Positions 36,038-57,307 of a stretch of DNA of 64,000 nucleotides are shown here, in pieces. Location of the stretch: assembly GCA_963809345.1 (NCBI GenBank), contig CAWEJF010000006.1:21242-85241 (forward strand), in the 5' to 3' direction. Position numbers and translations under genes: made by a program. How positions within the stretch are numbered: the first letter of the stretch is position 1; each line of letters opens with the position of its first letter. A model generated the notes under the pieces. It did not search any database. It had not been told where the DNA came from and saw nothing but the letters and a program-made list of their open reading frames with translations. This DNA is from Candidatus Aminicenantes bacterium (GTDB taxonomy: Bacteria > Acidobacteriota > Aminicenantia > Aminicenantales > Saccharicenantaceae).

Positions 36038-38371
36038 ATGATGAGATACGCAGGACGTTCGGCGAGAGCGTTCTCCCTCATCCTGGCCGCGACGGCCCTG
36101 CTCGTCGTCGCGGCCGCCCCCGCGACCGCCGCCGCCCCCGCCGCGGACAAGACCAAGGGGTTCTTCCCCGTGTCCGTCTGGTACTCGGGCGGCAAGGCGC
36201 GGGCGCCCATGCTCGAGACCGTGACGCCCCAGTCGCGGGAAGTTTGGAAGAAGGACATCGACCAGATCAAGCGGCTGGGCTTCAACACGGTCCGGACGTG
36301 GATCGAATGGACGGCCTGCGAGAAGAGCGAAGGGACGTACGATTTCTCGGCCCTCGAGCTCCTCACCGACCTGGCCGGCGAGGCGGGCCTACGGGTCATC
36401 GTGCAGGTCTACATCGACTCGGCCCCCGACTGGGTCGGCGTTTCATTCCCCGATTCCAAGTTCGTCTCCTCGAACGGCGTCGCCGTCGAATCGCAGGCCT
36501 CGCCGGGCTTCTGCTTCGACCACGACGGCGTCCAGAAAAGGATCCTGGACTTCTTCAAGGCCGCCGCCCGGGCCGTCAAGGGCAAGCCGGCATTCTACGG
36601 CTGGGACCTCTGGAGCGAGCCCCACATCATCAACTGGGCCGAGGTCTATTACGTCGGGGACCTCTCGTCGGTCCAATTCTGCTACTGCCACTCGACCCAG
36701 GCCCGCTTCCGGGACTGGCTCCGGACAAAGTACGGCACGATCGAGGCCCTGAACAAGGCCTGGTACCGGACGCTCGCGTCTTTCGACGAGGTCCAGCCGC
36801 CGCGCTTCGGCACCATCCTGACCTTCACCGATTACATCGACTGGAAGGAGTTCATCTCCGACAAGCTGGCCGAAGACCTGGCCCTCAAGGCCGCCGCCGT
36901 CAAGTCCGTCCTGCCGGCGACCGTCGTCACCAGCCACTCGGCCGGGCCGGGGATCTTCACCCGGCCGGATTGGTCGGGCACCCCCGACGACCGCAAGATG
37001 GCCGACAGCGTCGATTTCTACGGGGCCTCGATCTACCCCAAGCACGCCTGGACGATCAAGCCCTGGTCGCCCTTCTACCGCTCCTCGGGCCTCGACTTCG
37101 TCCGGTCCATGGGCATCGGCAACGGCGGCTTCTATATCGGCGAGCTCCAGGCCGGCTACGGCGTCTTTGGCATGAAGATGAGCTACCCCGTCGTCGGGGC
37201 GGACATCCGCGATTGGATGTGGAGCACGGTCGCTTACGGCGCCCGGGCCGTCAACATCTACGCCTATTATCCCATGAGCACGGGCTACGAGGCCGGCGGC
37301 TACGGCCTCGTCGAGCTCGACGGCAAGATCACGGAGAGGGCCGAAGCCGGCGGCCGCATCGCCCGGGTCATCACGGCCCAGCAGGACCTCTTCCTCAAGG
37401 CCCTGCCGGCCAAGGCCGAAATCGCCATCCTTTATAATCCGCTGTCGCACATGGTCGGCGGCCAACAGTCCTTCACCGGCGAAGGCCAGACCGTCGGCGT
37501 CAACAACCTGAGCGAATCCCTGCAAGGCGTCCACCGGGCCTTCTTCGAGCGCAACATCCCGGTCGATTTCCTCCACGTCCGCGACCTCGGGACGCCGCGG
37601 GCGGCCGGCTACAAGCTCATCATCGCGCCCTACCCGGTCATGATGTCCCAGCCGCACGTCAGGGCCCTCGTTGAATATGTCCGCGGCGGCGGGACGCTCC
37701 TGACCGAGGCCCGCTGCGGCTGGGTCGACGAGAAGGGCGCCTCGAGCCCGATCGTGCCCGGCGGCGGCCTCGACCAGGTCTTCGGCTGCCGCGAGCGCGA
37801 GCTGACCCCGCTCTCCAAGAGCGGGGTCGTCGAGATCAAGGCCGCCGACGAAGCGTTCCCCCTGCTCAAGCCGGGCGATAAGCTCGACAGCCTCTTCTTC
37901 GAGGAGTCGCTCGACGTCTTCGGGAAATCGAGCCGGGTCGTGGCCGCGTTCCCGGACGGGCGTCCGGCGATCGTGGCCGCGCCCTTCGGGAAGGGCCGGG
38001 CCATCATCGTCGGCTCCTTCCTCGGCTCGGCCTATCATCATTTCAAGAACCCCAACAACGGGAAGCTCTTCGCCGGACTCGCCGATTGGCTCAAGATCTC
38101 GGCGCCCGTGCGGGTGACCTCCTCCGTTCCCGACGCCGTCGTCGAGGGGCGGCTCCTCAAGGGCGACGGCTACTCGCTCCTCTTCGGCTTCAACCGCGGC
38201 GAAAAGGCCGTCATGGCCAGGTTCGGTGTCATGACGGACGCGGCCCGGCCCGCGGCGATCGATATCGAAACAGGTCAGGCCGTGGCCCTCATCCGGGAAG
38301 GGGATCGAGCCGTTCTCGAAAAGGCCCTCGGGCCGGGCGAAGTTTGGGTCGTCCGGGTGTCCGAAAGATGA
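36038..38371 (+). CDS. Secreted GH42 beta-galactosidase-family hydrolase
   Basis: GFNTVR..EW..EGTYDF, acid/base WSEP, nucleophile IGELQAG, trimerisation domain; signal peptide. Confidence 0.85.
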   Translation: MMRYAGRSARAFSLILAATALLVVAAAPATAAAPAADKTKGFFPVSVWYSGGKARAPMLETVTPQSREVWKKDIDQIKRLGFNTVRTWIEWTACEKSEGTYDFSALELLTDLAGEAGLRVIVQVYIDSAPDWVGVSFPDSKFVSSNGVAVESQASPGFCFDHDGVQKRILDFFKAAARAVKGKPAFYGWDLWSEPHIINWAEVYYVGDLSSVQFCYCHSTQARFRDWLRTKYGTIEALNKAWYRTLASFDEVQPPRFGTILTFTDYIDWKEFISDKLAEDLALKAAAVKSVLPATVVTSHSAGPGIFTRPDWSGTPDDRKMADSVDFYGASIYPKHAWTIKPWSPFYRSSGLDFVRSMGIGNGGFYIGELQAGYGVFGMKMSYPVVGADIRDWMWSTVAYGARAVNIYAYYPMSTGYEAGGYGLVELDGKITERAEAGGRIARVITAQQDLFLKALPAKAEIAILYNPLSHMVGGQQSFTGEGQTVGVNNLSESLQGVHRAFFERNIPVDFLHVRDLGTPRAAGYKLIIAPYPVMMSQPHVRALVEYVRGGGTLLTEARCGWVDEKGASSPIVPGGGLDQVFGCRERELTPLSKSGVVEIKAADEAFPLLKPGDKLDSLFFEESLDVFGKSSRVVAAFPDGRPAIVAAPFGKGRAIIVGSFLGSAYHHFKNPNNGKLFAGLADWLKISAPVRVTSSVPDAVVEGRLLKGDGYSLLFGFNRGEKAVMARFGVMTDAARPAAIDIETGQAVALIREGDRAVLEKALGPGEVWVVRVSER

Positions 38372-39339
38372 CCGACGTCTGCGGAGCCGTCGACATCGGC
38401 GGGACCAAGATCGCATCGGCCCTGTTCACGCGGGAAGGGGAGATCTCGGCGGGGGAGAAGGTCGCCATCGACAAGGTCGGGGGCGACGCCGCCGCCGCCC
38501 AAGTCAGGCACGAGATCGTCCAATTGGACGAGGCCGCGCTCAGGGCCGGCGGGCGTCTGGCCGCGATCGGCATCTGTGTTCCCGGCATCGCCTATTCCTC
38601 AAGCGGCAGAGTCTGGGCCCCCAATGTCCCGGGCTGGGACCAGTTCCCACTGCTGGACAAGATCCGAGGCAACGCGCATTCGATCCGTGTCCCCATCGTC
38701 CTCGAGAGCGACCGGAGCGCTTATGTGGCGGGGGAAGCCTGGAGAGGCGCCGCGGCGGGCGCCCGCGACGCGGTCTTCCTGGCGGTCGGGACGGGCATCG
38801 GCGCCGGGATCATCTCCGGCGGCCAGATCCTCCACGGCCACGAGGACATCGCGGGCGCCGTCGGCTGGTTCGGGCTCGACCCCGACTTCAAGCCGGAGTA
38901 TGCGGCCATGGGCTCGTTCGAGGCCGAGGCCTCGGGGAATTCCGTGGCCCGCAAGGCCCGGGAGCGGCTGGCGACGGGCCGGTCTTCGTCGATGCTCGAC
39001 CTGGCCGGGGGCGTCATCGACTCGGTGACCGCGGAGATCGTCGCGGCGGCGGCCCGGGCCGGGGACCCATTGGCCCTCGAGATCGTCGCCGAGGTGGTGA
39101 CCTACCTGGCCATGGGCGTCGCCAATATCGTCAGCCTCCTCAACCCCGAGGTGGTCGTCCTCGGCGGGGGCCTTTTCCAGGCCGCCGACGTCTTCCTCGA
39201 GCCGGTGCGCCGCGAGTTCAAGCGCTGGGCCCAGCCCTTGGCCGCCCGCTCGGTCAGGATCGAGCCTTCCAAACTCGGCGAGGACGCCGGTCTCTACGGC
39301 TGCGGGAAGCTGGCTTGGAATGCCCTCGAAGGCGAATGA
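38368..39339 (+). CDS. ROK family sugar kinase (lacks Cys zinc motif)
   Basis: VDIGGTKI, GICVPG, ESD, GTGIGAG and FEAEASG; ATGA overlap with GH42. Confidence 0.9.
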   Translation: MTDVCGAVDIGGTKIASALFTREGEISAGEKVAIDKVGGDAAAAQVRHEIVQLDEAALRAGGRLAAIGICVPGIAYSSSGRVWAPNVPGWDQFPLLDKIRGNAHSIRVPIVLESDRSAYVAGEAWRGAAAGARDAVFLAVGTGIGAGIISGGQILHGHEDIAGAVGWFGLDPDFKPEYAAMGSFEAEASGNSVARKARERLATGRSSSMLDLAGGVIDSVTAEIVAAAARAGDPLALEIVAEVVTYLAMGVANIVSLLNPEVVVLGGGLFQAADVFLEPVRREFKRWAQPLAARSVRIEPSKLGEDAGLYGCGKLAWNALEGE

Positions 39340-39370
39340 ACAAAGATGGTTCATCTTCTTCTTATACCGA

Positions 39371-39534
39371 TTCCGGGATATCCCTCTCTCCGACTTTGCT
39401 CAGGATATCGCCCCTCGCATCCCCGCGCCCCGGAAACCTCCGTAAACGGTTTCCCCCGCCTCCGGCGGGTCCCCCTTCCCTCACGGGGGCTTCGGGGCGA
39501 TATCCATCGCCGCCTCGAGATGGATTTCCCGGAA
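39371..39534. repeat. Structured ~140-nt repeat element, copy A, with 18-bp imperfect terminal inverted repeat
   Basis: TIR 39371-39388/39517-39534; stem GGATATCGCCCC/GGGGCGATATCC; homologous to 53478-53612. Confidence 0.85.
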
Positions 39535-39601
39535 ATAGGAGACCAACAAAACGGGGATACGTACTTCTGGTAACGATCTCCGAGCAGGAAGGAGAGCTGA
39601 C

Positions 39602-40375
39602 ATGTCGGCCAATAACTATCTCGGCATGATCCAACGGATCCTCGCGGAGATCCAATCGCAGGAGATGAAGCCCATCAAGGCCGCGGCCAAGATCATGGCC
39701 GCGGCGATCCGGAAAAAGGGCCGCGTCTACATGTTCGGCAGCGGCCACTCGGTCATCCCGGTGCTCGACATCTTCCCCCGCTACGGCAGCTTCGTCGGCT
39801 TCTTCCCGCTCTATGACCCGCGGCTCATGTGGACGAACGTCATCGGCCCGGGCGGGGCCCGGGAGCTGCTCTGGCTCGAGCGCCAGGAGGGCTACGCCAA
39901 GGTCTTCCTCCAGAGCTATCCCCTGGAAAAGCGCGACGTCATGCTTGTCTTCTCCCACGGCGGATTGAACGCGGCGGGCATCGATATGGCCCTCGAGGCC
40001 AAGGCCCGCGGCCTCAAGGTCGTCACCGTCTCGTCCCACGCCAACGTCAAGATCGGCAAGCGCTCCCACTCGTCGGGCAAGATCCTGTCCGAGATCGCCG
40101 ACGTGGCCATCGACAACCATGTCCCGCCCGAGGACGCCCTCGTCGACGTTGGCCAGCTCGAGCGCGTGGCCGCGGGCTCGACCGTCGCCGCCGTCTCGAT
40201 CGCCATGGCCCTCGTCGCCGAGACGGCGGCCGTGATGGCCAAGACGGGCAAGGTCCCGCCGACCTTCGTCTCGCCCAACGTCCACGGCGTCACGCCCGGA
40301 CACATGGCCGGCGTCTACCAGGCCTTCACCGAGTTCACGTACGCCCGGCCGTTCAAGGCCCGGCGCAAGGCGTGA
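39602..40375 (+). CDS. SIS-domain sugar-phosphate isomerase family protein
   Basis: VYMFGSGHS, FSHGGLNAAGIDMA..AKARG..VVTVSS and AAGSTVA. Confidence 0.88.
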   Translation: MSANNYLGMIQRILAEIQSQEMKPIKAAAKIMAAAIRKKGRVYMFGSGHSVIPVLDIFPRYGSFVGFFPLYDPRLMWTNVIGPGGARELLWLERQEGYAKVFLQSYPLEKRDVMLVFSHGGLNAAGIDMALEAKARGLKVVTVSSHANVKIGKRSHSSGKILSEIADVAIDNHVPPEDALVDVGQLERVAAGSTVAAVSIAMALVAETAAVMAKTGKVPPTFVSPNVHGVTPGHMAGVYQAFTEFTYARPFKARRKA

Positions 40376-49983: not shown

Positions 49984-50140
49984 GAAGACAGAATATTTCA
50001 CGACATCATGGACATCGAGAGATCCGGACAGGAGGAAAACCAAGGAGAAATGAGACAAACACGGAGCGTGCGGTTGCTTCTGATGGCCAGTCCGGATGAA
50101 GCAGGGGTTCAAGGGAAGAAGGTCTGAAGGAGAACGGATC

Positions 50141-53100
50141 ATGCACAAAACGCGAAGATTTGCCTTGATGATCTTCGTCCTCGGGCTCGGTTTTTTTATC
50201 ATGAACGTGAGCGTTGCCCGGGCCCAATCCATCCTCGAGGGCAAGATAACGGGAACGATCACCGATGATAATGGCGAGCCCCTTCCCGGAGCGAGCGTAG
50301 AGATCACGAGCCCCGCCTTGATGGGGAAGCGTTCCGCCGCCACATCGGCGAAGGGGACATTTGTCTTCCTCAGTCTGCCCAGCGGGAGCTATAAACTCAC
50401 CGCGTCCTTGCCCAGTTTCAAGACCGTCACTCAGGAAGGCATTGGAGTGAGGGCAGGCGGCTCCGTCGTCATCAACCTGGCCTTGCCGGTGGGGGCGATC
50501 GAGGAGACGGTGACGGTGACCGGCGAGGCGCCTATCGTCGACGTCAAGAACTCGAACATCGACGCCAAGATCGACCAGGCCATGCTGGCCAAGCTGCCGA
50601 CCAGCCGCGATTCGTTCTATGACCTGTCGCTCTCGACGCCAGGCATGTTCGACGTGGGCAAGAACGTCATGGGGAGTCCGACCGCCTACGGCGGGTCGAC
50701 CTCGGAGAATATCTTCCTGGTGAACGGGCTGGATACGACCGACCCGGCCGGTTCGGGCTACGGCTCGATGATCAAGGTGAATTACGACAACGTCCAGGAG
50801 GTCCGCCTTATCGCCCTTGGCAGCAAGGCGGAATACGGCAACTTCTCGGGCGTGGCCATCGACGTCATCACCAAGTCCGGCAGCGACAAGTTCATGGGCT
50901 CGGTGAGCGCCTACAGCCAGCTCGGCACGCCCAAAGGCCAAACGCTCACAGCCGGCGAATTGGGCCGGGATTGGCTGTATCTCGAACCCGGGGACGATTA
51001 TCGGTCCTATCCCAAGTCGAACGTCGAACTAGACCTGACCTTGGGCGGCCCGTTCTTTTCGGACAAAGTCTGGTTCTTCGGAGCGCTCAACTACCTGAAC
51101 GGCCGAAACAAGGAGCTCAACTGGGAGCCCATCTCTCGATCCACCGGAAGGTACGGCGACTTCAAGCTTACCAGCACGCCTATCAAGAACAACCATGCTT
51201 GGATCTCATATCATTATGAGAACAACAACGGCGGGGGGATAACCGACGGGAGCCTGGACTGGGATCCCTCAACGGCCTATGATTACTATAGCCAAAGCCA
51301 CTCGGTCTCTTCCCAATGGCAATGGTTCCCCAGTACGGCGACGTTCCTCTCGGTGAAACTCTTGGGCTTTTGGGTCAATGACAGAAACCAGCTTCCGGCC
51401 GACGCCCCGAACCACCCGGGGTATGTCAATTGGTGGAAGGGCGTGCCCTTCGATTCCATGGTCGGCGGGGCCTTCTCAGGGGCGAACAAACGCCTGACCA
51501 GCCGGACGACCCTACAGGCTGACCTGTCGCATTATGCCGAGAATTTCCTCGGCGAACACGATATCAAGCTCGGCGTTCAATACACTCGGGGCCGCCTGAA
51601 GAGCACGAGCGGGTCCTTTTTCGGAGAAGAGCTCATCGATCCGAATACCGATGAGAACCTCGGCTTCTTCGGGGTGTATCCCAGCGCGTACCCCTATCGC
51701 TGGACCTATAAGATCGAATACCTCCAGAGCTGGTACTATGACTACGACGGCTTGATGTTCTATACCTACAAGAATTATGACAAGCCCCACCGCACGGTCC
51801 GGACGTCCGACGGCCTGGGCTTCTTCTTCGACGATCAATGGTCGCCGACTAAACGCCTGACCTTGAACCTCGGCCTGCGCTACGACAAGATGACCGCCAA
51901 GTTCGGCCCGGGCCAGATGCTGGAACAGCCGACCTCTCCCGCGGCCTGGCAGGACCCGCTCACGGTAACGCGCGATCGCGAGGGCTCGAACAACCTGTTC
52001 GACTTCAATAACTGGTCCCCGCGAGTCGGTCTCACCTACGCGCTGACCCCGGACCGGAAGACCGTTTTCCGGGCCAGTTTCGGCCGGTACTATACCCCCA
52101 TCGGCGTTGAGAGCTTCGGGGGCGGCGGGCCCGATCTGGACCGCACCTATACGCTCAAGGAGTATTATTCCATTCCCTGGGACGGTCTCGACCTGAACGG
52201 AGATGGCTACATCGCAGGCAGCGAGTTCGCCAACGCCGCCCGTAAGATACCCAGCTTGACCCCCATCAATGCCGTGTTGGACAACGGCGACTGGCTGAAC
52301 GTCTTTGAGTTCAGTGATCCTTCCTGGCAACGGAAGGTCCAGTCCGGCATGAAAAACCAGCATACGGACCAATGGACCGTCAATCTCGAGCGCGAGCTCT
52401 TCAAGAATTTCTCGGTATCGGCCACCTACATCAACCGGGTGACCAAGGATGTCATCGTGCAATGGCCCCTGAATGAGGTCACTCTGGAGCCCTGGGAATA
52501 CGAGATCAAGACCCAGATCGTCAACGGCCAGGAGGTCTCCCTTTACAGTGTTGTCCTGAAGGATTATGACGGCAGCGGCGGCCCTCCCAACGGCGATGAC
52601 ATCCAGTGGATCTACCGCCACCAGGACAACGAGTGGCGCAACATGCCGGACATGCCGATCCAGGCCGGGGGGCCGGACGTCAAGGCCGAGCGCAGGTTCC
52701 GAGGTCTCCAGGTGACCTTTAACAAACGCTATGACAACCGCTGGCAGTTGATGGGCTCTCTCCTGTTCAACAAATCGACCGGGTTTGCGGGCCGCAACAA
52801 ACGCCAAGACCAGGATTACAACATGGAAGGCACGAACATCTGGTCCGATACATGGCTGGGCGGCCTCAACCAGACCATCAACAACATGACCGGCCCGATG
52901 CCGTTCACCCCGCGCTTTGAATTCAAGATAAACGGCAACTACACTATCCCCAAGATCGAGGTCGACCTGGGCCTTCGCTTCCGCCTGCACACGGGCCGTC
53001 CCGTATGGGTCCTGTCGTCATTCCGCCAGCTCGATCCGTACAATTATGACGGAGCTACTGAAGAGGAGCGGGCGCATTGGCCGATCATCCTCCAATCAGG

Positions 53101-53380
53101 GATGGAAGGCCAGATCGTGGCCCAGGATCCCACCAAACCATTGTATATGCCCATCCTGAGCATCCTGGACTTGCGACTGGAAAAGAGTTTCAGTGTCGGC
53201 CGCGGCAAGATACGGGCCATGCTCGATGGGTTCAACATTCTCGGCAGCAAGGCCGTGACCAACGCCATGGTCAAGAAGGTTCCAGTTCCGGACTCGGACA
53301 TTCTGCTCAGGGATGTCGGTCGGGTCGTCGGCTTAGTCAATCCCCGCTACTTCCGTCTGGGCCTTATGTACTCTTTCTGA
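50141..53380 (+). CDS. TonB-dependent receptor, Oar-type with N-terminal carboxypeptidase-regulatory-like domain
   Basis: ITGTITDDNGEPLPGASV, plug AEYGNFSGVAIDVITKSG, LTLNLGLRYD, WSPRVGLTY; C-terminal GLMYSF. Confidence 0.92.
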   Translation: MHKTRRFALMIFVLGLGFFIMNVSVARAQSILEGKITGTITDDNGEPLPGASVEITSPALMGKRSAATSAKGTFVFLSLPSGSYKLTASLPSFKTVTQEGIGVRAGGSVVINLALPVGAIEETVTVTGEAPIVDVKNSNIDAKIDQAMLAKLPTSRDSFYDLSLSTPGMFDVGKNVMGSPTAYGGSTSENIFLVNGLDTTDPAGSGYGSMIKVNYDNVQEVRLIALGSKAEYGNFSGVAIDVITKSGSDKFMGSVSAYSQLGTPKGQTLTAGELGRDWLYLEPGDDYRSYPKSNVELDLTLGGPFFSDKVWFFGALNYLNGRNKELNWEPISRSTGRYGDFKLTSTPIKNNHAWISYHYENNNGGGITDGSLDWDPSTAYDYYSQSHSVSSQWQWFPSTATFLSVKLLGFWVNDRNQLPADAPNHPGYVNWWKGVPFDSMVGGAFSGANKRLTSRTTLQADLSHYAENFLGEHDIKLGVQYTRGRLKSTSGSFFGEELIDPNTDENLGFFGVYPSAYPYRWTYKIEYLQSWYYDYDGLMFYTYKNYDKPHRTVRTSDGLGFFFDDQWSPTKRLTLNLGLRYDKMTAKFGPGQMLEQPTSPAAWQDPLTVTRDREGSNNLFDFNNWSPRVGLTYALTPDRKTVFRASFGRYYTPIGVESFGGGGPDLDRTYTLKEYYSIPWDGLDLNGDGYIAGSEFANAARKIPSLTPINAVLDNGDWLNVFEFSDPSWQRKVQSGMKNQHTDQWTVNLERELFKNFSVSATYINRVTKDVIVQWPLNEVTLEPWEYEIKTQIVNGQEVSLYSVVLKDYDGSGGPPNGDDIQWIYRHQDNEWRNMPDMPIQAGGPDVKAERRFRGLQVTFNKRYDNRWQLMGSLLFNKSTGFAGRNKRQDQDYNMEGTNIWSDTWLGGLNQTINNMTGPMPFTPRFEFKINGNYTIPKIEVDLGLRFRLHTGRPVWVLSSFRQLDPYNYDGATEEERAHWPIILQSGMEGQIVAQDPTKPLYMPILSILDLRLEKSFSVGRGKIRAMLDGFNILGSKAVTNAMVKKVPVPDSDILLRDVGRVVGLVNPRYFRLGLMYSF

Positions 53381-53402: not shown

Positions 53403-53437
53403 AGAGCCTGGAGGGTCAGCACCCTCCAGGCTCTTTT
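53403..53437 (+). terminator. Intrinsic terminator of the TonB receptor gene
   Basis: AGAGCCTGGAGGG/CCCTCCAGGCTCT stem followed by TTT. Confidence 0.8.
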
Positions 53438-53458
53438 CTATTTCGTCGCTGAGTCGAT

Positions 53459-53625
53459 GGGCCTTCTCCGGGGCGGCCCTCTCTCCGGCTTGGCTCAGGG
53501 TATTGCCTCTAGCTCCCCGACCCCGGGAACCCGTTCGTGCGGTTCCCCCCGCTTCGCGGGTCCCCCCTCCACCACGGGGATCTTCGAGGCAACACCCGTC
53601 GCCGCCTCGAGAAAAAGCCCCGGAG
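53459..53625. repeat. Structured ~140-nt repeat element, copy B
   Basis: Aligns end-to-end with 39383-39520; flanking IR CTCCGGGGC/GCCCCGGAG. Confidence 0.85.
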
Positions 53626-53650
53626 CGGGCGTGGACCAAAAGGCCGCAGA

Positions 53651-54500
53651 TCAGCCCCCCTGCAGCAGTCGATCTATCCTGACCAGGGCGTAGCCCCTGG
53701 CCTTGAGCTCCCTGATCAGGTCGCCGAGGCGAAGGTAGAACTTGTCCGTTCTCTCCGGGTCCGTCCCGATGTGGATGAGAAGGATGAAGCCGTTGAGGCC
53801 GTGGGGGTCCTATCTGCTCGTAGGCGAGGATGCGGTCGTAGATCGTCTGTGACGGGAGATACTCGGGCATGGACGGCGTCGTGTAGTCGGCGTTGGAGGA
53901 CGTTCCGGGTGTGAAATTGAAGAGGACGAGCCCTATCTCGCGCGACCAGGCCGCGATGTCCCGGTTGTACCATTCGTAGGGCGGTATGAAGAGGTGCCGC
54001 CTTTCGCGGGCGATGCCGAACCGCTCCATCTCCCGGAAATTCGCCTCGATGTCGGCCCGGAATGACTCGCGGCTGACGAGCGTCTTCTCGCGGTCGTCCC
54101 AGGGGCAATAGAGAAGGTGGCGGTCCGAGTGCGGTCCCAGATAGTGGCCGTCCGCGACGAGCCCCCGGATGACGGGCTCGAATTCCGGCGTCCGGTAGAA
54201 ATCGCCGGTGAAGAAGAAACCCGCTTTGACGCCCTCCTCGCGGAGGACCCGGCGGATATGATCGCCGCCGTCGCCGAACGAACCGCCGGTAAAAATGAGG
54301 GCCATCCGAGGGAGGGATGTGTCGGCCCGGACGATGCCGTCGTGGTCGCAGAGAAAGACCCGACAGGGATCGGCGGCGCCGGCCTTCGGCCCGTCCGCCC
54401 GGCAGCCCGGGGCGAAAAGGGCCATGACGAGGGCCAGACCGGCCGTCAGGCCCCCGGCGGCAGCCGGCCGGCGGCGCGGCGGCCGGCGGGTCCGGGTCAT
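53651..54500 (-). pseudogene. NodB polysaccharide deacetylase-family lipoprotein with a +1 frameshift near 53810
   Basis: Frame 1: lipobox APGC, GPHSDRH and FIPPY. After one extra base the next frame gives DPHGLNGFILLIHIG..GYALVRIDRLL*. Confidence 0.8.
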
Positions 54501-57307
54501 TTCTCGGCGGCCCGGACGTTCCAGCCCCTGATCTTGACGACCGGAAGCTCGCCGCCCAAATCCTCGGTGTTGAAGAGGCCCGAGATCTTGCGCGTCTCCT
54601 TCGGCAGGAGCGTGATGTAGTTGTCGTCGAGATAGATCGGCAGGACGACCTCTCCGGACGTGTCGCGGACGACGCGGATCTCGATCATCAGGGCCAAATC
54701 GTCGGAGGGGTTCTCGAGCTCGACCGTGACCCTCGTCACCGGGCCGTCCTTCGAGGTCTTGTCCTTGACCTTGACGATCACCGGCTTGAGGGCGTTCAGG
54801 GCCGTGAGGTCGGCGAAGTCCTTGATGGGCGTGACATACCAGGTCCCGTTCTCCTCGTCGAGCGTCTCGGGCTTCGCCGACAGGCAATAGAAGTTCGCGT
54901 CGACGAGCTCATTCTTGCCCTTGAAGACGCGCAGGTCGAGGAAGTACGTCGGCGAGATGCCGGCCGGGAGGCGGAGGACGTCGATCGCCTTGACCTCGTC
55001 CGCGAGGAGCCCGAAGTCGACCGATTTCGAGACGACCTCCTTGAGGCCGAAGTCGAGGACGCGGATCGTGGCCCTGAGCTTGGGGGCGGGGGTCGCCGAG
55101 TTGTTGACCGCGGCGATCTCTTGGTTGCCGTAATTGTAGACGAGGTGGATGGGCTCGCCGGCCTTGCGGGCGCCGTAGAAGGCGCCGTTCGGCTGCAGGT
55201 AGTAGTCGTACAGCTGCCACCAGAGCTTGGGCCAGGCCGAGTTGTACATCCACTGGATGACGCCCGTCGCCTTATACTTGCTGGCGACGAAGGCCTCGAA
55301 CATGCCCCGCATGGCCTCGTAGTTCAGGAACTGGGCCTTGCGGAGGTAGTCCTCGAGGTCCTTGGCCGGGCCGAGGCGCTTGTCCATGGCCTCGTTGTAG
55401 CGCTTGAGGTCCTTGAACATGCCGCGGCTGCAGTGGAACTCCCAGAAGTCGTTGATGGGCCAGAGCTTGTCTTCCGGCATCATCTTTCGCAGGCTCTCGA
55501 GCGGCGGGACCTGCGGTCCGGGACCGGTCTCGGTGTTGAAGCCGTAGGCGCCGCCGTTCTTCGTGTCAACGTACCAGTAGACTGGCGGGACATAGTCGTA
55601 GGGGCCGAGCATCTTGACCCCCGACGGCCCCGTGATCTCGCTCGTCTTGCCCTTGGTCGAGACGAGCGTCGGCCGGGTCGGATCGATCTCTTTCATGATG
55701 GCGATGTAGCGGCGCTCGAGGTCGGGGTGGGGGACCATGTCGCTCGCCTCGGCCCAGACGAAGATCGAAGGGTGGTTGCGGAGCCAGAGGACCTGCTGCT
55801 TCCAGGAGTCGGCGGCGAGGTCGATGAGCTCCGGCGTGCTGATCCCGCCGTAGGGCTCGTCGGCGGGCCGGCCGAGATAGTCGGTCCATTCCCACTGGCA
55901 GCTCCATCCGACCATGACGAGAAGGCCGTTCTCGTCGCAGAGGTTGTAGAGGTCCTGGCTCGTCCCCCAGAAGCCCTCGAGCCGGAGGGTGTTGAGGTTC
56001 ATATGGCGGGCATAGAGGACCTCGGCTTGGAGCTTGCGGCGCTTGACGTCGAGGAGGAGGTCGTCGGCCCAGCCCCCGCCCCGGATGAGGATCTTGCGGC
56101 CGTTGAGCAGAAAGCCGCGGTAGCCCGCTTCCGTGCGGTAATCGGCGATCTCCCGGATGCCGAACCGGACGGTCCGTATATCCGAGGGCATGATCTGAGG
56201 CATGCCCGGCATCTTGCGGAGGTCCTTGTCCCGGGCCTTTTCCTCGCCCTTGGCGCGGGGCGTCTCGGGGACGGCCTCTTCGCCGCCCTTGTCCTTTTTC
56301 TGGATGAAGGAGAGCGACATGAGGTAGAGCTCGGGCTTGCCCAGGTCGTGGGTCCACCAGACCCGGGGGTCCTTGATGACGAGCTCAGGGGTCGTTTCGG
56401 GGGTGAGCTCGATCTTTTTCGTTTCGTGCGGGCGGAGGGTCACCTCGCGGGAGAAGCTCACGCCCTCGGTCCGGCCCCGGAGACTGCCGGTGACATCGGC
56501 GTCGGCGTAATTCACGAGATCGGCCGTGACGGTCAGCCGGGCCTCTTTGTTGGCCGGAATATCGAGCTTGGTGATGACGAAGGGGTTCTCGATCGAAACG
56601 TCGCCCGTGGCCCGGACCCGGACCTCTCGGAAGAGGCCCATGGCCCTGTCGGGAGGAGCCGGGTTCCAATCGACCCAGCCGATCGTGGGCTCGCCCGCCT
56701 TGGGCGGGAAGACCTCGACGGCCAGGACGTTCCTTTCGGAGCGCTTGACGTCCGCCGTCACGTCGATGAAGAACCGGCGGTAGGCGCCGTATGTCTCCGA
56801 GGCGTCGGCGATTCTCTTCCCGTTGAGCCAGATGTTGGCCCGGTAGTTGATGCCGTCGAATTCGAGCCGGGTCCGGCCGAGCCCAGGGGCCATGGGCACG
56901 GTGAACTCCTTGCGGTACCACCAGGAGACCTGGAACGGCGCCGTCGGGACGTTCTCGAGGTTCTTGCCGAAGAAGATGTCCGGATAGACGTTGTTCTCGA
57001 CGAGCGTCCCGAGGACGGTCGAGGGCACGACGGCCGGATACCAGGATTCGATCTTGAAGCCGGGGACCGAGATCTGGTCTCCTGTCCCTTTGGCCTTCTC
57101 GGAGGACTGAATATACCAGAGGTCGCTGAGGTTGGCGCTGAGCTCGATGGGCATCCCCATCTTGGCCCTCGGCTCGGGCCTGTTCTGCATCTGGGACGAA
57201 TATTGGGCCGGGCTGGCGGGGGGAAGCGCGGCCAGGACGGCCAGAAGGCCGGCGGCCGCGGCGAGCTTGGCGGAGATCCCGAGGGAACGATTGCGGTTGG
57301 TCGTCAT
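54497..57307 (-). CDS. csxA: Secreted GH2 exo-beta-D-glucosaminidase (CsxA-like)
   Basis: GINYRANIWLNG, IRGGGW, NHPSIFVWAEASD (Asp acid/base), GPYDYVPP and FNTETGPG (Glu nucleophile); signal peptide. Confidence 0.85.
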   Translation of the reverse strand: MTTNRNRSLGISAKLAAAAGLLAVLAALPPASPAQYSSQMQNRPEPRAKMGMPIELSANLSDLWYIQSSEKAKGTGDQISVPGFKIESWYPAVVPSTVLGTLVENNVYPDIFFGKNLENVPTAPFQVSWWYRKEFTVPMAPGLGRTRLEFDGINYRANIWLNGKRIADASETYGAYRRFFIDVTADVKRSERNVLAVEVFPPKAGEPTIGWVDWNPAPPDRAMGLFREVRVRATGDVSIENPFVITKLDIPANKEARLTVTADLVNYADADVTGSLRGRTEGVSFSREVTLRPHETKKIELTPETTPELVIKDPRVWWTHDLGKPELYLMSLSFIQKKDKGGEEAVPETPRAKGEEKARDKDLRKMPGMPQIMPSDIRTVRFGIREIADYRTEAGYRGFLLNGRKILIRGGGWADDLLLDVKRRKLQAEVLYARHMNLNTLRLEGFWGTSQDLYNLCDENGLLVMVGWSCQWEWTDYLGRPADEPYGGISTPELIDLAADSWKQQVLWLRNHPSIFVWAEASDMVPHPDLERRYIAIMKEIDPTRPTLVSTKGKTSEITGPSGVKMLGPYDYVPPVYWYVDTKNGGAYGFNTETGPGPQVPPLESLRKMMPEDKLWPINDFWEFHCSRGMFKDLKRYNEAMDKRLGPAKDLEDYLRKAQFLNYEAMRGMFEAFVASKYKATGVIQWMYNSAWPKLWWQLYDYYLQPNGAFYGARKAGEPIHLVYNYGNQEIAAVNNSATPAPKLRATIRVLDFGLKEVVSKSVDFGLLADEVKAIDVLRLPAGISPTYFLDLRVFKGKNELVDANFYCLSAKPETLDEENGTWYVTPIKDFADLTALNALKPVIVKVKDKTSKDGPVTRVTVELENPSDDLALMIEIRVVRDTSGEVVLPIYLDDNYITLLPKETRKISGLFNTEDLGGELPVVKIRGWNVRAAEK

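Follow-up and report, generated by a model that had tools for sequence, protein, structure and literature searches.

A structured repeat with compensatory changes in Candidatus Aminicenantes is very probably a foldback MITE with ISL3-type ends

Candidatus Aminicenantes is an uncultured but widespread sediment lineage. A 64,000-nucleotide stretch of one of its genomes (hereafter the window) holds two non-coding segments whose helices differ by paired changes, and the question raised by the locus is what kind of element leaves such a pattern. The original prediction, made from the sequence alone, had described an element of ~140 nt present twice, and had read it as an undescribed structured RNA or as the single-stranded DNA (ssDNA) substrate of an HUH-type mobility system. 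The window's assembly is a metagenome-assembled genome (MAG) of 3.1 Mb in 17 contigs, 85% complete and with 64% GC. On the evidence set out below, the element very probably belongs to a family of non-autonomous DNA transposons (MITEs) that has not been described before and is native to Candidatus Aminicenantes (order Aminicenantales).

The two copies, termed A and B, align end to end (39360-39545 against 53455-53640) with a mean column identity of 82%, and all of the compensatory changes that had been listed between them were found in the sequence. The outer stem reads GGATATCGCCCC/GGGGCGATATCC in copy A (39403-39414 / 39494-39505) and GGGTATTGCCTC/GAGGCAACACCC in copy B, the differences comprising three double changes and one A-C that is G-U if read on the minus strand. 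The inner stem changes from GGAAACC/GGTTTCC in copy A (39432-39438 / 39448-39454) to GGGAACC/GGTTCCC in copy B, whilst the CCCGCC/GGCGGG and CCCCG/CGGGG stems are the same in both. The fold is likewise real, with z-scores of -5.1 to -6.3 for both copies on both strands and none of 200 shuffles equal to them. Copies A and B appear to represent two old subfamilies (A and B), and would differ by paired changes because of this. The gene context was also as claimed: copy B lies between convergent genes and copy A between co-oriented ones, in the spacer of a ROK-family gene (stop 39339) and a SIS-domain gene (start 39602), where it starts eight bases 3' of the ROK stop codon. The extent of the element needed revision, the earlier coordinates covering its inner part only. 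The features of the two sites are as follows.

38086..39339, plus strand: ROK-family gene upstream of copy A (Pfam PF00480, E = 5e-47)
39339..39346, no strand: probable target-site duplication, left copy, AACAAAGA (from the sequence; the empty site in G009 reads ...GAATGGTAAAAGAAAACGGGGACACG)
39348..39544, plus strand: the entire MITE of copy A, 197 bp (alignable with 24 further copies of the genome; profile match C6:60601-60785; empty site in close relatives)
39348..39377, plus strand: left terminal inverted repeat of copy A, GGTTCATCT[TCTTCTTATAC]CGATTCCGGG (family consensus GGTTCATCTCCCGATTCCGGG)
39389..39516, plus strand: structured core of copy A (fold; match to covariance model R1 at C6:60630-60757, 128 bits; pair counts)
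39403-39414 / 39494-39505: helix P2 of the copy A core
39432-39438 / 39448-39454: hairpin H2 of the copy A core
39455-39460 / 39464-39469: hairpin H3 of the copy A core
39528..39544, plus strand: right terminal inverted repeat of copy A, CCCGGAAATAGGAGACC (family alignment)
39545..39552, no strand: probable target-site duplication, right copy, AACAAAAC (from the sequence and the empty site in G009)
39602..40375, plus strand: SIS-domain gene downstream of copy A (Pfam PF13580, E = 2e-40)
50096..53380, plus strand: gene for a TonB-dependent, Oar-like outer-membrane receptor, upstream of copy B
53403..53434, plus strand: terminator-like hairpin and T-tract of the receptor gene, with copy B just past the site
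53459..53637 (left end approximate), plus strand: copy B, an old member of subfamily B, its terminal repeats decayed and a target duplication no longer recognisable
53484..53608, plus strand: structured core of copy B
53650..54887, minus strand: polysaccharide deacetylase gene, converging on copy B

Copy A is itself degenerate, with 11 nt inserted in its left terminal repeat and ~4 nt lost from the right one, and its duplication is imperfect (AACAAAGA / AACAAAAC, 6/8 identical and one base out of register). Within its core, CCCCG (39421-39425) and CCCCC (39471-39475) are rivals for pairing with CGGGGG (39484-39489).

Far from being present twice, the element has 43 blastn matches in its own genome, and a profile search gave 61 matches that merged into 52 loci. 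When 25 full copies were aligned together with their flanks, the ~140 nt proved to be the interior of a larger unit: the canonical copy is 189 bp long, bounded by GGTTCATCTCCCGATTCCGGG and CCCGGAAATGGGAGATGATCC, with terminal inverted repeats of 21 bp, GG(T/C)TC(A/T)TCTCCCGATTCCGGG. Target duplication was assessed in 32 elements with two recognisable ends, drawn from the window's genome and its relatives. The 8-mers flanking the element are identical at 6 or more of 8 positions in 23 of them, against 1/32 for a control made of the next 8 nt outward, and the flanks are 88% A/T in a genome of 64% GC. Duplications of 8 bp that are the same on both sides include TTTTTTAA, AAAAAAAA and TTTTTTTT, often right after a GC-rich stem, and non-homopolymer duplications (ATAAAGAA, ATATTATA, AAAAGTAA) were seen as well. 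The element goes into A/T-rich targets, 8 bp of which are duplicated, and in many cases the target is a terminator's T-tract.

Elements fall into length classes of 69-103, 180-209 (canonical) and 220-340 bp, all too short for a transposase gene. The family has what defines a prokaryotic MITE: it is short, without a transposase gene, with inverted ends, a duplication of fixed length and dispersed copies. In the long class (at least eight copies in the window's genome) the H2-H3 part is swapped for a different structured insert, hairpin-rich and ~190 nt long, and the family is therefore modular. Long variants (235-321 bp) retain the terminal repeats, P1/P2 and the CCCCCTTCCCTCACGGGGG segment; in G000 they lie at C2:154059-154377, C13:130161-130481, C15:91910-92215, C3:184335-184641, C9:40499-40799 and C7:94484-94718. 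The mini-elements (69-103 bp, with intact duplications) were considered as proof of a mobile shell and dropped, since deletion after insertion looks alike. Near the end of contig C257 of G025 (L118 2042-2362), the element and ~20 nt of flank stand in tandem, either as a real tandem duplication or as an assembly artefact.

Comparison with empty sites, which the original prediction had proposed, bore out that the element moves. The end of the ROK gene was used as a probe across the genus, and the orthologous locus was recovered from 23 of 42 genomes. In nearly all of these 23, including the closest relative (flank 90% identical), the ROK-SIS spacer is 17-110 nt long and has no element; the site of copy A is vacant in G031, G036, G009 and most other relatives, and copy A is therefore a lineage-specific insertion. 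The same spacer in G007 has received an independent insertion of subfamily B in the opposite orientation. A second orthologous locus, C5:83398, was compared across 31 species: ~7 have the element in full length there, ~5 have a partly deleted one, and in the others it is missing or something else stands in its place. Identity with the copy in the window's genome is 0.66-0.91, the third codon positions of the adjacent gene giving 0.68-0.82, and core identity does not track species distance, a pattern that suggests turnover or conversion among copies and not vertical constraint. Purifying selection at this locus found no clear support, core identity being about that of the third codon positions and unlinked to species distance. 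Species also differ at other sites that they share, in the interior of the element or in its orientation. One intergenic site, G000 C9:631993-632167, is occupied in G007 (L047 1480-1652) by a closely related element in the opposite orientation, either because the element inverted in place between its arms or because two insertions occurred independently. Downstream of C5:83398 (L094-L123) a motif, ATGTGCTATGATGGGC, has been kept by nearly every genome of the genus; it resembles an extended -10 box and lies just 3' of the element's site, the remainder of the spacer being unalignable.

The family is a general feature of the genus. It was found by blastn in 37/37 genomes of the genus and is almost absent outside it at blastn sensitivity, and the terminal repeat, with 2 mismatches or fewer allowed, occurs in 41/42 genomes at up to 50 sites per genome, the reversed control giving 0. 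Exact matches among 185,579 species genomes number 67, all of them in MAGs of Candidatus Aminicenantes/Aminicenantales, a few of which carry evidently automatic labels; several MAGs that GTDB places in this genus are titled Terriglobales, Eubacteriales or Planctomycetales. A covariance model, another of the checks that had been proposed, extended the range of the core considerably. The model (R1), built from the 126-nt core, detected it in 82/151 genomes of Aminicenantales, in 28/60 genera and in all nine families sampled, and many genomes had at least 23 scored matches. In two families (f7, f8) the central ~70 nt are almost unchanged and the outer ends differ, and the helix homologous to P2 has compensated changes (CAGGAAGCCGCCC/GGGCGGCTTCCTG); the shell there (loci L213-L232) has ends GGAAGCATCTCC...GGAGATGCTTCC and an inner GTGATTC motif. 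The best two matches outside the genus lie near copy A in sequence (~95%; G122:C292:8801-8929 and G141:C143:2623-2750, loci L198 and L200). They stand on 3-9-kb contigs of MAGs from other families, and are the result of either recent horizontal spread or mis-binning.

The whole element is predicted to fold into a rod in which arms 1-56 pair with arms 134-187, closed by a branched tip. The tip consists of H2, H3 and either a long-range CCCCCG/CGGGGG helix (P3) or a local CCCCC/GGGGG hairpin (H4), so that the central ~75 nt comprise two local hairpins and a C-rich segment. That covariation would be lost once more copies were aligned had been named as a possible refutation; it survives. In 45 cores, 94.2% of cells are paired. 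Double changes (75 cells) were seen at 16/37 pairs; the corresponding counts are 7.7 for shuffles and 4-9 for slid controls. Most of the covarying pairs belong to P2 (10 of its 12 base pairs), whilst P3 has three, H2 and H3 one each and H4 none. The H2 pair 44/62 is AU in 32 sequences and GC in 11, and the H3 pair 68/76 is GC in 43 and AU in 2; between P3 and its alternative H4 there is little covariation to choose, little in the former and none in the latter. At C5:83398, 18/52 pairs are doubly changed among seven orthologues (0/500 shuffles reach this figure; slid controls 3-7), with many transversion pairs and almost no G-U intermediates. Even in copies with unrecognisable terminal repeats the arms remain complementary in a copy-specific manner: cognate arms pair at -34.7 kcal/mol versus -23.0 for non-cognate ones, and in 24 cases the right arm that belongs to the copy comes first or second among 57. 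Conservation is high in the stems of H2 (0.93) and H3 (0.96), against 0.58 in the H2 loop and 0.59 in the terminal repeats. A strand test was balanced (99 G-U versus 117 A-C cells), and the two strongest single-pair asymmetries oppose each other, one P2 pair favouring the minus strand and one P3 pair the plus strand.

A search of Rfam 15 at gathering and permissive thresholds gave a tRNA, at another place in the window, as its sole match; on the element, the best sub-threshold match was anti-hemB at 16.5 bits against a cut-off of 49.5 bits. H3 was considered as a relative of a CRISPR repeat (CCCCGC..GCGGG) and set aside, there being no CRISPR array in the assembly. The minus strand of the core, e.g. 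at 39421-39489, holds five or six runs of G3-G6 (GGGGG, GGGAAGGGGG, GCGGGGG, CCGGGG, GCGGGG), and the C/G runs are the most conserved columns of the core; a G-quadruplex or i-motif formed by them is conceivable.

The positions of the copies relative to genes were counted for 45 solid copies, using crude ORF-based gene calls (2303 genes, 86% coverage). Convergent spacers hold 24/45 copies where 19-21% were expected (p 2e-7 to 1e-6), and divergent spacers hold 5/45, where their length would predict 26% (p = 0.011); of the copies in tandem spacers, 10 run in the direction of the genes and 6 against it. This bias is consistent with an element that inserts into terminator T-tracts, with counter-selection of insertions that disrupt promoters, or with a combination of the two, and the counts give no sign of a strand-specific transcript. 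Neither a promoter nor a hairpin-plus-T-tract terminator was found inside copies A and B. Canonical copies that sit in T-tracts precede the duplicated T-run, and some could terminate transcription, to judge from the sequence.

Which enzyme might move the element was approached through its ends. Eleven complete ISL3 elements of the order, 1306-1394 bp long, start with GGTTCATC.., GGTTCTCTTCC.. or GGCTCTTC.. and are flanked by perfect 8-bp A/T-rich duplications, e.g. TTTTAATT, ATAAATAT and AAAAAGGC on both sides; one of them, GGCTCTTCGTGATTCCGAG in G127, has the terminal octamer and an inner GATTCCG in common with the MITE end. Mobilisation of the MITE by an ISL3-type enzyme is proposed with moderate confidence because of the eight shared terminal bases, the one shared inner motif and the length of the duplication. 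The ISL3 transposase domain (PF01610) has no match in the window's genome, and is present in 3/41 genomes of the genus and 46/151 of the order. No transposase was found in the 67 public loci with the terminal repeat, nor an autonomous element with the same full-length repeat in the three ISL3-bearing genomes of the genus or in 29 loci of the order, where the repeats match the MITE over the first 8 nt only, plus GATTCCG in one. Insertion sequences are often lost from MAG assemblies. Two candidate partners were rejected: a pair of inverted terminal repeats 2.1 kb apart in G005 encloses ordinary host genes, and the 1.6 kb that separate two MITE halves (C3:211011-212617) are an IS110-family element inserted in a long-variant copy. 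The latter insert (L031 1841-2875, minus strand) encodes a 344-aa DEDD_Tnp_IS110 / Transposase_20 protein and lies between GACTCAG and ATATTTATCAG. IS110 elements target repeats, and the MITE interior may be a preferred IS110 site.

Taken as a MITE, the element would be moved by an ISL3-family DDE transposase acting in trans and recognising the terminal repeats. It has multiplied to ~50 copies, is present or absent at orthologous sites, gathers downstream of genes and decays by deletion. Its RNA-like covariation would follow from the long foldback, a change in one arm being removed or matched in the other, either through selection on the hairpin form (ssDNA, cruciform or read-through RNA) or, alternatively, through templated repair or conversion from arm to arm. 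The compensatory changes are genuine, and a foldback transposon can produce them alone; no RNA gene is established by them. The two-copy RNA originally envisaged thus gives way to a dispersed mobile repeat with the anatomy of a MITE, whilst the opinion that it is not a simple riboswitch was correct. The link to a mobility system was also right, although the proposed HUH-type ssDNA substrate was not borne out, the anatomy being that of a DDE-type MITE with ISL3-like ends. It is highly improbable that the element is the hairpin substrate of an HUH (Y1) transposase of the REP/REPIN-RAYT or IS200/IS605 type, for which its strongly palindromic sequence and two Y1_Tnp (PF01797) matches encoded in the genome might speak. 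Those matches, at C9:891129 and C9:492356, were the outcome of a search for the associated RAYT gene that had been suggested, and neither adjoins a copy. HUH/RAYT or IS200-type elements have no inverted-repeat ends and no such target duplications, and the 21-bp inverted repeats and 8-bp duplications of the copies are the wrong anatomy for them; moreover, the ends match those of ISL3 elements. That the similarity of A and B and their compensatory pattern arose by chance or from faulty assembly is next to inconceivable: nothing favours this beyond the genome being a MAG, hundreds of copies occur in dozens of independent assemblies, and the shuffle and slide controls exclude chance.

Seen simply as selfish DNA, the element still leaves three observations unexplained, namely the contrast between the H2/H3 stems and the H2 loop, the near-invariant central junction across the order under different outer ends, and the pairing kept in copies whose terminal repeats are unrecognisable. 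These give some room to an unlikely reading in which the core (~75-126 nt: P2, P3/junction, H2, H3 and the C-rich strand) would have a function of its own as a structured nucleic acid, carried by the MITE as cargo and maintained by selection on hosts or element lineages. Such a cargo could be an RNA at gene 3' ends, on either strand (stabiliser, insulator, terminator or decay barrier), or alternatively a site, folded as ssDNA or bound by a protein, on which the element would depend in cis. Covariation in the local hairpins H2 and H3, outside the terminal repeats, is in its favour, as are stems kept whilst the H2 loop varies, the occurrence of the core in 28/60 genera, the same centre within the different-looking ends of f7 and f8, the enrichment at gene 3' ends and the fold z-scores of -5 to -6. 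It is opposed by the lack of strand asymmetry and the apparently random orientation to transcription (10 versus 6), by the lack of a promoter or hairpin-plus-T-tract terminator within copies A or B, and by the C5:83398 locus, where most species lack the element or have it partly deleted, the identity of the element is close to that of third codon positions without tracking species distance, and transversion double changes with few G-U intermediates fit templated copying as well as selection. If the cargo reading were true, this would be a rare structured module spread by a DDE-type MITE through a whole bacterial order.

The non-autonomous transposon remains the preferred reading, and the claim of novelty has to be qualified with it: no Rfam family matches the element, but its ends match an IS-end family, which the original prediction had itself named as speaking against novelty. 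The family is new and its kind is known, that of a foldback MITE with ISL3-type ends; a search of the literature on Aminicenantes repeats found no paper. Like the Correia elements of Neisseria (CREE/NEMIS) and ERIC, BOX and RUP, it is small, palindromic, multi-copy and intergenic, with subfamilies that differ by internal indels. Once transcribed, those elements form long hairpins with an effect on mRNA processing. Correia elements are able to invert (review PMC10969869), and the orientation flip at an orthologous site parallels this. Identity with a Correia element was nevertheless rejected, Correia duplicating TA and the present family 8 bp, with sequence, host phylum and presumed transposase all unrelated. 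As in REP/REPIN-RAYT systems, abundant GC-rich extragenic palindromes lie between convergent genes and the hairpin is kept by paired changes; REPs differ in having no terminal inverted repeats or target duplications and in needing a Y1 (HUH) enzyme. The ISL3 elements of Aminicenantales (G057, G137, G089, G127 and others) have the same GG(T/C)TC(A/T)TC ends and 8-bp A/T-rich duplications, yet they are 1.3 kb long, encode a PF01610 transposase and have repeats that diverge past the first 8 nt. A close parallel in kind is the 187-bp MITE of Microcystis aeruginosa PCC 7806, which has 8-nt duplications and GGCTCTTCG ends and was attributed to ISL3 by its authors (PMC11448079). Both are ~190 bp long and non-coding, duplicate 8 bp, start with GGCTCTTC like ISL3 elements, fold into stem-loops and occur in tens of mostly intergenic copies (PMC11448079). 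Sequence similarity ends at the terminal octamer, however, and the inverted repeat is 21 bp here against 9 nt in Microcystis, with arms that pair over ~55 nt. The family described here further differs in its strongly A/T-rich target at terminator tails, in an interior that is modular and conserved order-wide, and in that a partner transposase was sought and not found.

For annotation, these sequences should be masked as repeats in Aminicenantes genomes and not called as sRNA genes. Copy A places a hairpin of ~-80 kcal/mol between the ROK and SIS genes, and with ~50 copies per 3-Mb genome at terminators and in operon spacers, mRNA 3' ends could be affected, as far as their placement indicates. 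There is also a warning as to method: clean covariation, even among orthologues, can stem from a foldback transposon, and covariation alone is therefore no proof of an RNA gene. Finally, a second small palindromic repeat, GGGGACAYGTACC..GGTACRTGTCCCC, unrelated to the MITE, has one degenerate copy at 39553-39580 of the window. It is also found in the ROK-SIS spacer of relatives (L072, L079, L082, L086), with up to five tandem copies in G026, and its motif occurs only five times in the window's genome.
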